Virus genome (UHGV): UHGV-0073206
DNA length: 22,430 bases
From: a virus
Strand: one strand, 5' to 3'
The notes beneath the pieces were generated by a model that made no database searches, was not told the DNA's origin, and saw nothing but the letters and a program-made list of their open reading frames with translations. The stretch's first letter is position 1, and each line of letters begins with the position of its first letter. The translations under genes and the position numbers were made by a program. Positions 3,255-18,460 of the stretch are shown piece by piece.

Positions 3255-4030
3255 TATGCAGACTCCTCTGAATACTGAAGACGGAACTGGTTAACCACGG
3301 CAAAGACACGCAACTGGTTAACATAGTCAGGCGGGAACAGCGTGTTCAGGCGGTTCGGATCGCTGGCATCACGCTCCACAACCAGGTACTGCTTGAACAG
3401 TTCGTAGTTTTCCACGATCCCCGCACGCTCGAGCTGACGGTAGGTTGCCAGCAGTTCCCCTTTGATCACCGCCGGGGTGACAATCGCCTGACCGGGACCA
3501 AAGCGGGTACCGTCACTGGCAAGCTTGTGACGCCCGTACTTACTGGTAATGACGGATTTCAGTTTGCGCAGTACATACGCGCTGGTATGCAGCGTCTCGC
3601 TGTCGAGGTAGCTGTTATCCGCAACCCCGTAAGCGTTTTTCCTGTACGTGGTGACATCACGCTGAATGCGCAGCACCCCGCTTTCGACATACGCCGTTGC
3701 CACGCCATGAGACAGCAGGGTCTGCTGCTCGGTCATTGTGAACCGTTTCCCCTTCGGCGCAGGCAGCATACCCACCAGCTCACCGGTCTGCGTGGGACGT
3801 GCCGGATCGTTGCGGATAAACACTGCCGCGCGGGCGGTACGGCTGGCTGCCAGCTCGTCGGCAGGCGTCTGGGTGTCTTTTTCGTACCCCGCCAGGGTAA
3901 TGTGCTGCTGGTTAAACTGGTCACCTGCGGTCACCAGTTCTGACAGCGTGCCGGTCTTTGCCGTATACACATGACCATACAGCTGACGCGCATAGCTCCA
4001 GCGACCGCTGGTATCGTTCATCTCGGTCAC
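3254..4030 (-). pseudogene. Tail sheath protein, C-terminal fragment
   Basis: 258-aa ORF directly upstream of the tube gene; sheath proteins are normally larger than 350 aa; the 5' end overlaps the out-of-frame tail of the terminase fragment, indicating a deletion junction near 4030-4090. Confidence 0.5.
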
Positions 4031-10909: not shown

Positions 10910-11065
10910 TTACTCCTCAGGTTCGTAAGCTGTGAAGACAGCGACCTCCGTCTGGCCGGTTCGGATTCGTACCTCGCAGAGGTCTTTCCTCGTTACCAGT
11001 GCCGTCACTATGACGGTTAAACAGATGACGATCAGGGCGATTAACATCGCCTTTTGCTGCTTCAT
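10910..11065 (-). CDS. hok: Hok/Gef-family type I toxin (51 aa)
   Basis: MKQQKAMLIALIVICLTVIVTALVTRKDLCEVRIRTGQTEVAVFTAYEPEE: single TM helix followed by the conserved C...R..GQ/T.EV.A...YE motif of Hok/Gef toxins. Confidence 0.85.
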   Translation of the reverse strand: MKQQKAMLIALIVICLTVIVTALVTRKDLCEVRIRTGQTEVAVFTAYEPEE

Positions 11066-11122
11066 AGCCTGCTTCTCCTTGCCTTTCGGCACGTAAGAGG
11101 CTAACCTACATTTGTGAGACAT
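10910..11122 (-). CDS. mok: Mok-like N-terminally extended frame overlapping hok (translational-coupling ORF)
   Basis: 70-aa in-frame extension (MSHKCRLASYVPKGKEKQA + Hok); the size relationship matches recalled mok/hok pairs. Not independently verifiable here. Confidence 0.35.
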   Translation of the reverse strand: MSHKCRLASYVPKGKEKQAMKQQKAMLIALIVICLTVIVTALVTRKDLCEVRIRTGQTEVAVFTAYEPEE

Positions 11123-11241
11123 AGATTGGGCCTCAGATTAATGTTAAGCGTCTTGCAGGACGCGTAATGTTAACTGGGGCTTTTCTCTATCTGCCTTTTG
11201 GTGTTCATGCCTGAGACAGATAGCCTCAAGCACCCGCAGTT

Positions 11242-14997: not shown

Positions 14998-15399
14998 ATG
15001 ATGAACGCCCTAGAAGTATCTATGTACAGAATCAGCAAGCTTCTTCAGGAAACTGGATGGAGCCAGGCTGAGCTTGCCCGTAGAATTGGTGTGACACAAC
15101 AAACTGTTCAACAATGGGTCAGCGGTAAGGCTACACCTAAAGCCTCAAGTTTGGATAAACTGGTTGAGGTTACAGGGCATCCATTGCATTGGTTTTTATT
15201 GCCTCCTGAAGAGGGGGAGCAAATTTTCACCCCTGACACGATGAAAATTGGTCCTCGTCAACGCGAACTGCTCCAGGCTTTTAGTGCGTTTCCAGAGGAA
15301 GACCAAGAAAAAATGCTTCAAGAAATCAAAGACAAGAAAAAATCAATGGAAGAAACCATTGCCCGGTGGTTGGCGGCACAAAAAAGCCGCCGGGCGTGA
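14998..15399 (+). CDS. XRE-family HTH repressor (PaaR2/RacR-like), candidate prophage repressor
   Basis: 133 aa; HTH (GWSQAELARRIGVTQQTVQQWVSGK) then HPLHWFLLPPEE; occupies the cI position divergent from the cro-like gene and directly upstream of the antitoxin/toxin pair. Confidence 0.75.
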   Translation: MMNALEVSMYRISKLLQETGWSQAELARRIGVTQQTVQQWVSGKATPKASSLDKLVEVTGHPLHWFLLPPEEGEQIFTPDTMKIGPRQRELLQAFSAFPEEDQEKMLQEIKDKKKSMEETIARWLAAQKSRRA

Positions 15400-15426
15400 C
15401 CACAGTACAAGAAGAGGAGTTATGCC

Positions 15427-15618
15427 ATGAGTACAGCCCTTTCTCCGATAGTTTCAGAATTCGAAACTACCGAACAAGAAAACAGTTACAACGAATGGTT
15501 ACGCGCTAAAGTGGCGTCAAGCCTTGCAGACCCTCGTCCCTCAATTCCACATGATGAGGTAATGGCTGAAATGGAGAATCTTATTGCTCAAATTGCTGTA
15601 ACTAACAGGAGCGAGTAA
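15427..15618 (+). CDS. paaA2: PaaA2-like antitoxin
   Basis: 63 aa; SPIVSEFETTEQENSYNEWLRAKVASSLADPRPSIPHDEV matches the recalled PaaA2 antitoxin of the PaaR2-PaaA2-ParE2 module; SD AGGAG 9 nt upstream; stop overlaps the toxin start (TAATG). Confidence 0.7.
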   Translation: MSTALSPIVSEFETTEQENSYNEWLRAKVASSLADPRPSIPHDEVMAEMENLIAQIAVTNRSE

Positions 15619-15905
15619 TGTTACCCATTTTGTGGCTACCATCTGCTCGCGATGATTTGCGTCAGATCGTAGCCTATATTGCTAAGGAAAATATTCCTGC
15701 AGCACGCAGACTAAAAATACGGATTGAAACGTCTGTTTTAGCCCTCTCTGAGCATCCATATCTATATCCGCCAAGTGATCGAGTATCCGGTTTGCGGGAA
15801 ATTGTGGTTCACCCTAATTATATCGTTTTGTACCGAGTAGCAGCTTCAAGCATTGAAATTGCAAATATTGTGCATGCCCGCCGACAATTTCCCTTCCCTA
15901 TCTGA
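15618..15905 (+). CDS. parE2: ParE/RelE-superfamily toxin (ParE2-like)
   Basis: 95 aa; ParE-like features (DDLRQIVAYIAKENIPAARRL...LSEHPYLYPPSDRVSGLREIVVHPNYIVLYRV); translationally coupled to the antitoxin. Confidence 0.8.
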   Translation: MLPILWLPSARDDLRQIVAYIAKENIPAARRLKIRIETSVLALSEHPYLYPPSDRVSGLREIVVHPNYIVLYRVAASSIEIANIVHARRQFPFPI

Positions 15906-16733: not shown

Positions 16734-17339
16734 ATGGAATTTAAAGATTTACCAAAAGAAATCCAGATAATTGCTGCAACGACACTCGGTGATAGTCTGG
16801 TGAAAATTGACCCGGCATACACCAAAAAAGAAACCATCGATAATATGGTTCGTAATGTGCGCAATGCTTTTTCAGGGCTATATGGTTCTGATAATCAAAA
16901 ACAGGAAAACGATATTGATGAACGGGTAATTTCTGTTTGCCTGAATGGTCATGTTATTTCAGCAATCAGAACAGAAACGGCAACTGCTTTTGATTATCTC
17001 TGCATGATTCAGAGTCTTGCCGATGTTCTGTTGAAATCAAAAGATTTAGAAAACGATGCAAATTTACAGGGGCGCACAATAGCACATCCATATGCACATA
17101 TTTTAAGCTCTGTGGATGTTAAAAATAATACCCTGCAAGTTGCTTTCGAACATTCACCGCAAGAGTTAAAAACGAAAAAAGACGATGCGGATAAAAATAA
17201 TAACGATGCACCTGATTTGTTTATTATCAGCTCAAAGCTGCTGGAAATCATGAAGAGCGAGCTTGAAAAACACAACATCAAGCCCACTTCTGTAAATTTA
17301 CGATGGGTAATGAGGATTATTGACGCTTCTCTGTCATAA
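16734..17339 (+). CDS. Hypothetical protein (201 aa), AT-rich cargo gene inserted between ydfC-like and DicF-like
   Basis: Clean 201-aa ORF, visibly more AT-rich than flanking genes, starting 23 nt after ydfC-like; no recognised domain; Lys/Asp/Asn-rich with no TM segment. Confidence 0.6.
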   Translation: MEFKDLPKEIQIIAATTLGDSLVKIDPAYTKKETIDNMVRNVRNAFSGLYGSDNQKQENDIDERVISVCLNGHVISAIRTETATAFDYLCMIQSLADVLLKSKDLENDANLQGRTIAHPYAHILSSVDVKNNTLQVAFEHSPQELKTKKDDADKNNNDAPDLFIISSKLLEIMKSELEKHNIKPTSVNLRWVMRIIDASLS

Positions 17340-17439
17340 GCTTCTTATCCAGGAATGCTTCAAATGTATTGTAAATGGCGTCAATTTCCCCCATTTGCTC
17401 GGTAGCAAGAGAAATGGCGTGAGATAGTGAAAGGGGCAC

Positions 17440-17508
17440 CTAGCAATGGGCGTTAAAGGTTTCCACGGCCAGGCGCATAAGAAACATTACTTTTTCTTCT
17501 TGTGTCAT
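17440..17508 (-). CDS. 22-aa ORF with near-consensus SD (MTQEEKVMFLMRLAVETFNAHC); possible small peptide or chance ORF
   Basis: ATG preceded by AGGAGG at 9-nt spacing on the minus strand; lies within the ORF-poor segment downstream of the 201-aa gene. Confidence 0.2.
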   Translation of the reverse strand: MTQEEKVMFLMRLAVETFNAHC

Positions 17509-17832
17509 AAATTTCACCCTCCTGAGGGTTGGTAATTAAGGAGTTCTCCACGGGTGAGGTGGAGTGTGTGCGCCGGACACGGGTGAGCATCCGGCACTGA
17601 CAGTTTACAGAAAGGATATATCCCTGAAAAGTCAGGGCATAACGCGAAAGCGCACGGCGAGGTAGTTGGTTCATAGATAGCCTGTCGTTAAATTTTCGTC
17701 GACCGTGCGCTTCCGGTTGTGGCACTCCGCGAAATGGCGCGGCGGTAAGTATGGCGGGGTTATTCCTTCCCCGTTGAGGACACCGGGTTGTCAGGTTGAC
17801 CATACGCCTGAGTGACAACTCCGCTACAACAA

Positions 17833-17895
17833 CCCATGTTGATTACCTTTTGGCGGGTATTCGTTTTGTTTTTCCCGTGATACCCGCCCCTTTTA
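17833..17895 (+). ncRNA. dicF: DicF-like small RNA (divergent 5' region, conserved 3' terminator stem)
   Basis: ...UUGAUUACCUUUUGGCGGGUAUUCGUUUUGUUUUUCCCGUGAUACCCGCCCCUUUU has the same architecture as recalled DicF (…UUUGGCGGUAUCAGUUUUACUCCGUGACUGCUCUGCCGCCCUUUUU): GGCGG stem, CCGUGA, CCGCCC+U-tract; lies ~175 nt upstream of dicB as in Qin. 5' boundary is approximate. Confidence 0.4.
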
Positions 17896-17898
17896 AAG

Positions 17899-18054
17899 TG
17901 AATTTTGTGATGCGGTGAATGCGGCTCAGCGCACGCGGAACAGTTAAAACAAGCGGTCTTTTACTTGCGTAACAGACATCAACTAACAATCCGGCGTTAA
18001 TTGTTGACTGGTTAACGTCACCTGGAGGCACCAGGCACCGCATCACAAAATTCA
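17899..18054 (+). other. Perfect 19-bp inverted repeat pair (TGAATTTTGTGATGCGGTG ... CACCGCATCACAAAATTCA) enclosing 118 nt; candidate RNase III processing duplex between DicF-like and dicB
   Basis: Arms at 17899-17917 and 18036-18054 are exact reverse complements; located between the DicF-like terminator and the dicB SD. Confidence 0.45.
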
Positions 18055-18071
18055 TTGTTGAGGACGCGATA

Positions 18072-18260
18072 ATGGAAACGTTATTACCAAACGTTAATAC
18101 GTCTGAAGGTTGTTTTGAAATTGGTGTCACTATCAGTAACCCAGTATTTACTGAAGATGCCATTAACAAGAGAAAACAAGAACGGGAGCTATTAAATAAA
18201 ATATGCATTGTTTCAATGCTGGCCCGTTTACGCCTGATGCAAAAAGGATGCTGGCAATGA
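18072..18260 (+). CDS. dicB: Cell division inhibitor DicB
   Basis: 62 aa METLLPNVNTSEGCFEIGVTISNPVFTEDAINKRKQERELLNKICIVSMLARLRLMQKGCWQ, near-identical to recalled DicB; SD GAGGA at 8-nt spacing. Confidence 0.8.
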   Translation: METLLPNVNTSEGCFEIGVTISNPVFTEDAINKRKQERELLNKICIVSMLARLRLMQKGCWQ

Positions 18261-18460
18261 ATACTACATTTGCACTTGTTCTGACGGTTTTTCTTGTTTC
18301 CAGTGAACCGGTTGACATGGTTACTGGCGTATACGGCTCAATGAAAGAATGCATGGTTGCCGCAGCGGAACAGAAAATTCCCGGTAACTGTTATCCGGTC
18401 GATAAAGTTATTCACATGGATAATAACGAAATCCCGGCAGGACTTAAAACAGCACCGTAA
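18257..18460 (+). CDS. ydfD: YdfD-like small protein with N-terminal hydrophobic segment
   Basis: Start ATG overlaps the dicB stop (ATGA); MNTTFALVLTVFLVSSEPVDM...; position and size match YdfD of Qin-type operons. Confidence 0.5.
   Translation: MNTTFALVLTVFLVSSEPVDMVTGVYGSMKECMVAAAEQKIPGNCYPVDKVIHMDNNEIPAGLKTAP

Follow-up and report, generated by a model that had tools for sequence, protein, structure and literature searches.

DicF is a textbook prophage sRNA, and the locus described here raises the question of what kind of RNA would be made, and to what end, when the position of dicF in a dicBF operon is occupied by a different sequence. The locus lies in a 22,430-nt stretch of viral DNA (the window) that has been the subject of an earlier note, made without database searches. 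Based on the evidence brought together below, positions 17836-17894 of the window are read, with a probability of about 0.6, as an allele of an sRNA slot that belongs to the early-left operons of lambdoid prophages and holds DicF in Qin and KilS in Rac; this allele (the window allele) would act in trans without repression of ftsZ, xylR, pykA or manX.

Genomic context of the slot

The window represents the early-left arm of a lambdoid prophage, in which the gene order is an HTH repressor (14998-15399, +), a PaaA2 antitoxin (PF21217)/ParE toxin (PF05016) pair (15427-15905, +), a DUF1391 (ydfA-like) gene, the sRNA slot, dicB, a DUF1482 gene, a large Rv2179c-type exonuclease gene, excisionase and integrase. 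The slot lies between ydfC-type genes and dicB, which is the dicF position of a dicBF operon. In the ORF listing, dicB (62 aa, 18072-18260, +; translation METLLPNVNTSEGCFEIG...) has the Shine-Dalgarno sequence GAGGA at 18060-18064 (+), and its product is annotated by RefSeq as 'cell division inhibition protein DicB' in a 98.7% identical record; the best E. coli matches carry, by annotation, dicB followed by a DUF1482 (ydfD-like) gene.

Alignment to K-12 Qin revealed an identity of ~97% over the 230 nt 5' of the slot and again from the U tract onwards, while the ~55 nt that constitute DicF in K-12 Qin are replaced in the window by a different sequence, 9-10 nt shorter. A second, smaller mosaic patch relative to Qin was detected in the centre of the domain downstream (~17952-17990).

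Other elements of the same prophage were recorded in passing. The HTH regulator, PaaA2 and ParE follow one another at 14998-15905 (+) as a PaaR2-PaaA2-ParE2-like three-gene module heading the slot/dicB operon, and a full-length sok antisense RNA (Rfam RF01794, 120.1 bits) at 11060-11235 (-) indicates a hok/sok-type toxin-antitoxin locus.

Structure of the window allele and its relation to DicF

The window allele has a single-stranded 5' tail at 17836-17851 (+; AUGUUGAUUACCUUUU, also written AUGUUGAUUACCUUUUGG), which is unpaired in the minimum free energy (MFE) fold and is a candidate seed; the stretch GTTGATTACCTTTTGG at 17837-17852 agrees with the sequence quoted in the earlier note. Its GUUG may pair with CAAC at 17827-17831 to give a small 5-bp hairpin. 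Based on the MFE fold and on the comparison of alleles, the tail is followed by a terminator-type hairpin with CC and a 4-U tract (17852-17894, +), in which GGCGGGTATTCG (17852-17863) pairs with CG.GATACCCGCC (17876-17888) to form a 12-bp, G+C-based stem closed by a U-rich loop of 12 nt that ends in CCC; CC and TTTT (17891-17894) come next. The hairpin folds with an MFE of -16.8 kcal/mol (z = -4.2), and none of 200 dinucleotide shuffles folded equally well. It has the make-up of a Rho-independent terminator hairpin with a U tail of the DicF type, with 4 U in the tract, and went uncalled in a simple terminator scan whose rule asks for a loop of <=8 nt and >=5 T, against the 12-nt loop and 4 T found here.

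At 17889-17894 the window allele reads CCUUUU, one U fewer than the CUUUUU of K-12 and most sister alleles. This shorter tract may increase read-through into dicB and, set against the 5 U of sister alleles, may mean both weak termination and weak Hfq binding. According to a MAFFT alignment to K-12, an RNase E cut at the K-12 position would leave only ~6 unpaired nucleotides in the window allele.

The Rfam DicF model (RF00039) had no match in the window at its gathering score (48 bits), nor at E<=10 on the 551 nt of 17600-18150, whereas K-12 DicF scored 76.7 bits in the same test. The scan with this model, which the earlier note had itself named as a check, thus went against the sRNA being DicF-like in sequence, while the DicF-like position in the dicBF slot and the DicF architecture were borne out. 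Likewise, the 3' stem mirrors DicF, as had been claimed, in its 5-bp base (GGCGG/CCGCC), but the inner stem and the loop differ. The K-12 5' end had been given correctly as UUUCUGGUGACGUUUGG, and this tail, on which pairing with xylR and regulation of pykA depend in DicF, is indeed replaced in the window allele. Homology of the hairpin to DicF rests on its position and on a shared tail, not on sequence.

A modular family of slot alleles

Slots were collected through loci with DicB relatives, through two exact flanking anchors and through the window tail. From IMG/VR 195 slots were recovered that comprise 51 distinct sequences, canonical DicF making up ~80% of them. The slot showed at least six tail types and at least six hairpin types that reassort, in the combinations t1+h1, t1+h2, t2+h3 (window), t2+h4, t3+h1, t4+h4, t5+h5 and t6+h6. 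Among the named alleles, A2 joins the DicF tail to a second hairpin, B and B' have the window tail and window hairpin, C has a third tail with the DicF hairpin, and D, E and F represent other combinations; the window tail is joined to a third hairpin in E. coli STEC346, M9 and Br_190. All slot alleles fold into a single-stranded tail of 12-17 nt, a hairpin of -10.7 to -21 kcal/mol and a U tract, and the order UUUGG-hairpin-U tract is kept in all of them. In this family, defined here by position, the tail, hairpin and U tract are followed by AAAG and a long-range duplex, 5' of a gene for a division inhibitor (dicB/kil); strain M9 and one complete phage genome have kil instead of dicB 3' of the slot. 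Scores with the Rfam DicF model fell from 76.7 bits for DicF to 61.1 for C, 43.5 for A2, 39.4 and 34.1 for alleles with the window tail and a KilS-type hairpin, 39.1 for KilS, 38.8 for D and 37.8 for E, the window type and F having no match.

The tail of the window allele is identical wherever it was read, in loci selected through DicB as well as in genomes selected by similarity, and it occurs with two different hairpin classes. Part of the data on tail conservation was gathered with the tail as query, and the set selected by the exact tail is informative on hairpin variation only: its 12 window-type sequences have a nearly invariant stem and a variable loop. Constraint is seen as an invariant tail next to a varying loop and upstream flank. 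As the hairpin stem hardly varies, it offers no covariation, and RNAalifold across the slot alleles recovered only the 5-bp stem base since the inner stems do not align; no hairpin covariation is claimed. A search for complementarity to the tail across the window returned only the locus itself.

The 3' end of KilS (b4833, 98 nt, K-12 Rac) lies at a hairpin with a U tract, behind which AAAG and the long-range duplex element recur, 5' of kilR. It was located at NC_000913.3 1418405-1418502 (L329, 1906-2003, -) and reached 39.1 bits with the DicF model, whose gathering score is 48. Its detection on a Northern blot and its association with Hfq in RIL-seq are documented in the study that gave KilS its name, which makes no reference to DicF (Bar et al., 2021; PMC8175672). 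In position as well as in structure, KilS is a homolog of DicF. The window allele has no sequence similarity to the 98-nt KilS beyond the GGCGG/CCGCCC base and the flanks shared in the alignment; as judged from its position and shared tail, it is a member of the slot family with the most divergent hairpin, best described as a putative, as yet unnamed sRNA of the DicF/KilS family.

Canonical DicF tails are themselves polymorphic within the segment that pairs with xylR, where GGUGACGUUU is also found as GGUGGCG, GGUGACA, GGUGACU and GGUAACG (e.g., L050, L094, L127 and L095), and this polymorphism may tune or abolish the pairing with xylR. The modular allelic series and the link between DicF and KilS are the most interesting by-products of the analysis, and some of the alleles may have been described earlier.

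A long-range duplex and probable RNase III processing

Downstream of the slot, inverted arms at 17899-17917 and 18036-18054 are, as the earlier note had stated, 100% complementary over 19 nt, and they lie 118 nt apart; by our own arithmetic, a perfect 19-nt inverted repeat in ~700 nt has a chance expectation of ~1e-6. In the MFE fold of 17890-18075 (-67.9 kcal/mol, z = -5.5) they are part of a 21-bp helix (19 perfect pairs, a G-U and an A-U) that closes a structured domain, with the 5' arm at 17897-17917 (+), in which an RNase III cut is predicted near 17908, and the 3' arm at 18036-18056 (+), which ends 3 nt 5' of the dicB Shine-Dalgarno sequence. With its 21 bp the helix reaches the ~20 bp or more of almost continuous duplex RNA expected of an RNase III substrate. 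In most of 126 unique sequences, which had been selected through an internal motif, it retained all 21 pairs, and one pair showed a double change; the variants were frequently G-U on the + strand (34, 15, 10 and 9 sequences) and rarely A-C.

A fit between this duplex and DicF processing by RNase III had also been suggested, and it was supported by published data as far as these are reported in PMC5069750 and PMC9438474, which describe, citing Faubladier et al. (1990), a 72-nt DicF species with an RNase III-dependent 3' end. Counted from the 5' end of K-12 DicF (L001, 3883+71 = 3954), this reported end falls on the tenth nucleotide of arm 1 (3945-3963), and an error of several nucleotides would stay within the arm; its equivalent in the window is ~17908. 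In RNA-seq of wild type vs an rnc mutant, a site at 1649470 in the dicF-dicB spacer had 26 reads in the mutant and 0 in the wild type (Gordon 2017, Table S1); it lies 8 nt 3' of K-12 arm 1 and supports the assignment weakly.

Upstream of the slot, a long hairpin (17638-17722, +; arms 17645-17657 and 17703-17715) was found in the fold with ~97% identity to K-12 Qin. The 5' end of the 190-nt DicF precursor of K-12 is made by a separate RNase III cut (PMC10448788) and, by ungapped alignment, K-12 position 3746 (L001) is window position 17710, within this conserved hairpin. By analogy with K-12, the hairpin is probably the RNase III site for the 5' end of a long precursor.

The domain enclosed by the duplex (17918-18035, +) has conserved hairpins at 17993-18019 and 18021-18035 and a variable, mosaic centre (~17952-17990). 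Rfam STnc100 (RF02076) matched 17901-18049 with 34.6 bits (E 6.5e-6 in the 551-nt search), short of its gathering score of 47, and the K-12 sequence with 34.4; this similarity points to a remote relative of STnc100 rather than a member. The Pas sRNAs (PasA-D) were considered as an identity for the locus and rejected, as they are found in the Q/late region.

Among 64 spacer variants, at least five unrelated centre sequences were observed at 17952-17990 between conserved arms and hairpins, and this mosaic centre could be a second variable pairing module. In some IMG/VR prophages (L146, 894-1359; L123, 4732-5215) isrK (63.6 and 59.6 bits) and C4 antisense RNA (80.3 and 76.7 bits) come 3' of the slot and its STnc100-like element, so that four RNA elements lie within ~470 nt.

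Predicted targets

The earlier note took the 5' end of DicF for the ftsZ seed; published mutational analysis assigns pairing with xylR to the 5' end and pairing with ftsZ to the 3' part (PMC5069750). Tail and loop were hybridized segment by segment with the translation-initiation regions of ftsZ, manX, pykA and xylR, using 500 dinucleotide shuffles per target, as RNAduplex on full-length RNAs with ftsZ over-extended the pairing and was non-discriminating even for canonical DicF (P=0.13). The positive controls were recovered: the DicF tail with xylR (-19.7 kcal/mol, P=0.004) and the DicF 3' part with ftsZ (-19.4 kcal/mol, P=0.04) and with pykA (-22.3 kcal/mol, P=0.01). Tail and loop of the window allele did not exceed the shuffled controls with any of ftsZ, xylR, pykA and manX (P=0.12-0.89); for xylR, the window tail gave P=0.75 vs 0.004 for DicF, and the window loop gave -11.6 kcal/mol with the ribosome-binding region of ftsZ (P=0.75), to which the 3' part of DicF is complementary. 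When accessibility was taken into account, the total energy changed from -13.3 for DicF to -0.5 for the window allele with xylR and from -11.8 to -4.5 kcal/mol with pykA, and with ftsZ only a short duplex of the window loop with the Shine-Dalgarno sequence was left in this crude model, with a total of -7.7 kcal/mol.

Since the two segments through which DicF pairs, its 5' tail and its loop with the 3' arm, are both replaced, the window allele is predicted not to repress ftsZ, xylR, pykA or manX, and loss of the known DicF regulon is the best reading of the hybridization models. The loop/Shine-Dalgarno duplex was no better than shuffles, but some residual repression of ftsZ may occur. The pairing models, run where target prediction had been proposed as a check, turned up no pairing above the shuffled controls, and the change in target specificity that had been suspected is very probable, but both modules differ, so that the reason given for it, a divergent ftsZ seed at the 5' end, does not hold.

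Alternative interpretations

It is unlikely, although not negligibly so, that the hairpin is only a cis element, either a leaky intrinsic terminator or an attenuator by which the output of the upstream genes is balanced against that of dicB, or a decayed DicF remnant devoid of a role in trans. Such a role would agree with the missing complementarity to any validated DicF target, with the missing Rfam DicF match, with the short 4-U tract and with the very short tail that RNase E would leave by cutting at the aligned K-12 position; however, a spacer that merely precedes a terminator would not be expected to stay invariant, as the tail does in loci that were not selected by it, nor to be joined to two unrelated hairpin classes. 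Hfq binding has been proven for the sister sRNAs DicF and KilS (PMC5069750, PMC8175672), and the conserved UUUGG-hairpin-U-tract layout likewise argues for more than a terminator. Quite improbable is the opposite case of a functional DicF ortholog whose U-rich/CCC loop, paired with the ftsZ Shine-Dalgarno region, would still repress ftsZ and block division. The slot is the same and adjoins the division inhibitor dicB, and the loop UGUUUUUCCCGU can pair with ftsZ -13 to -1 (hybrid -11.3, total -7.7 vs -7.2 kcal/mol for canonical DicF in the same crude model), yet the hybrid energy is no better than that obtained with shuffled ftsZ leaders (P=0.75, as compared to 0.04 for canonical DicF), the pairing is largely generic anti-Shine-Dalgarno, sister allele B' does worse (-3.5) and nothing is left of the extended pairing that the DicF 3' arm forms (hybrid -22.9).

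The 19-bp inverted repeat might also be thought to act as DNA, either in recombination or inversion or by delimiting a small mobile cassette, and the mosaic centre (~17952-17990) between conserved arms would fit; this is very improbable, as variants in the arms are mostly G-U on the + strand, which at the DNA level, or on the opposite strand, would amount to A-C mismatches, and the conserved hairpins between the arms point the same way in 126 of 126 unique sequences. The helix is, in addition, part of the Rfam STnc100 consensus structure, and the RNase III-dependent RNA end, as reported for K-12, maps into it. Finally, that a small protein is encoded is scarcely credible: a 40-aa TTG ORF (17796-17918, +) and a 121-aa ORF (17843-18208, -) do exist mechanically, but slot lengths of 78, 83, 87, 90 and 97 nt between the anchors differ by numbers that are not multiples of three, so that no reading frame is maintained, the 121-aa ORF runs antisense to dicB, and a scan of 17300-18300 found no promoter-like site.

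Distribution and annotation

The tail of the window type was detected in 187 of 5426 complete E. coli genomes (211 places), with ETEC, STEC and O55:H7 strains among the carriers; FDAARGOS_1077, ETEC B7A and O55:H7 RM12579 are examples. Canonical DicF was present in 3975 of these genomes (6701 places) and KilS in 1534. The 701-nt region matched 11576 places in E. coli, to be set beside the 6701 places of canonical DicF, and about a quarter of the dicB/kil-type loci in E. coli are estimated to be occupied by a sequence different from canonical DicF. An 18-mer of the duplex arm was confined, chance matches aside, to Escherichia and Shigella among GTDB species representatives. The dicB region was found in 57 records of sequenced phages, one of them annotated with DicF, and the window allele in only one phage record, PP818812.1 (4576-7666; L330).

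This record is labelled 'Actinobacillus phage vB_Apl-pPE4', and its genes (DicA, YdaT, Kil and exonuclease VIII) resemble those of Rac-type phages of E. coli, so that the host given in the label may be incorrect.

Most E. coli genomes annotated by PGAP lack an annotation of canonical dicF and kilS (RefSeq records H71-H80, no features under the match), and for this reason annotation-based counts would be far too low. As canonical dicF is unannotated there too, the absence of a RefSeq annotation is uninformative for the window allele. Published surveys of DicF counted only copies >99% identical (PMC5069750).

Proposed mode of action and implications

For the trans-acting allele favored here, the following course can be proposed by analogy with K-12 DicF. 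The operon transcript would start at a repressor-controlled promoter 5' of ydfA; RNase III would first cleave it in the upstream hairpin (~17710), and RNase E would follow at a point within 17836-17850. A 3' end might arise by termination at the weak 4-U terminator (~17892) or, in read-through transcripts, by RNase III cleavage in the 21-bp duplex (~17908); the latter cut would also part the sRNA from the dicB mRNA, leaving dicB a short leader. The hairpin at 17852-17894 would serve both as a 3' end resembling an Hfq module and as a leaky terminator 5' of dicB. The product would be an RNA of ~45-75 nt, with the single-stranded tail, hairpin and U tail of a typical Hfq-binding layout, acting in trans by base pairing.

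A broader proposal is offered tentatively, at somewhat less than even odds: the dicF/kilS slot may be a natural 'seed-swap' cassette, in which near-identical flanks provide the processing signals, with an RNase III hairpin 5' and an RNase III duplex 3' of the slot, while tail and hairpin loop are exchanged as independent pairing modules, so that the sRNAs of different lysogens are aimed at different host mRNAs, and the window allele (t2+h3) may be a functional Hfq-dependent regulator with new host targets that do not include ftsZ. If the slot is an allelic series that reassorts, maps of the presence or absence of 'dicF' miss functional diversity; if true, this would also unite DicF and KilS in one family, and the natural slot variants would provide material for work on how an exchange of modules redirects sRNAs to other targets. 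The location of the 72-nt end, as reported for K-12, inside a conserved 21-bp duplex suggests a concrete model for how the message for the toxic DicB is uncoupled from the sRNA.

Comparison with known systems

The domain enclosed by the duplex aligns with STnc100, including the closing long-range helix and a CCNGG-AGGCA-CCNGG hairpin with compensatory differences, and like STnc100/PasD it is prophage-borne; unlike them, it scores 34.6 bits against a gathering score of 47, has no terminator of its own and forms an operon spacer 5' of dicB instead of lying in the typical Q/late region (Zhu, Shabalina and Storz, 2026, bioRxiv 10.64898/2026.05.13.724894). KilS occupies the homologous slot next to the gene of another FtsZ inhibitor (kilR), and natural alleles join the window tail to a KilS-type hairpin (H63, H64 and H70), one of them 5' of kil. 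In contrast to the window allele, KilS is 98 nt long, is transcribed from a start site of its own and is preceded by a different sequence; its tail (UGUGUGUAGUCCUGG) and hairpin are dissimilar, and it reaches 39.1 bits with the DicF model.

With DicF itself (K-12 Qin, b1574) the window allele shares the operon position after ydfABC-type genes and 180 nt before dicB, the layout of single-stranded tail, UUUGG, G+C-based hairpin with the GGCGG/CCGCC base and U tract, the upstream RNase III hairpin together with the downstream long-range duplex, and the short loop motifs GUUUU and CCGUGA. It differs in the tail (GUUGAUUACCUUUU as against UUUCUGGUGACGU in DicF), in an unrelated inner stem and loop, in a U tract of 4 instead of 5 U, in having no Rfam match and in lacking complementarity to ftsZ, xylR, pykA and manX.

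RNase III sites that are created by long-range pairing within polycistronic transcripts are known from the stems flanking 16S and 23S rRNA and from the sib retroregulation of phage lambda. The duplex described here resembles them in being long and near-perfect, of about two helical turns, in joining sequences more than 100 nt apart and in placing a cleavage site between functional RNAs; the difference is that the cleavage, documented in the published accounts for the K-12 allele only, would here part an sRNA from the mRNA of a toxic small protein.
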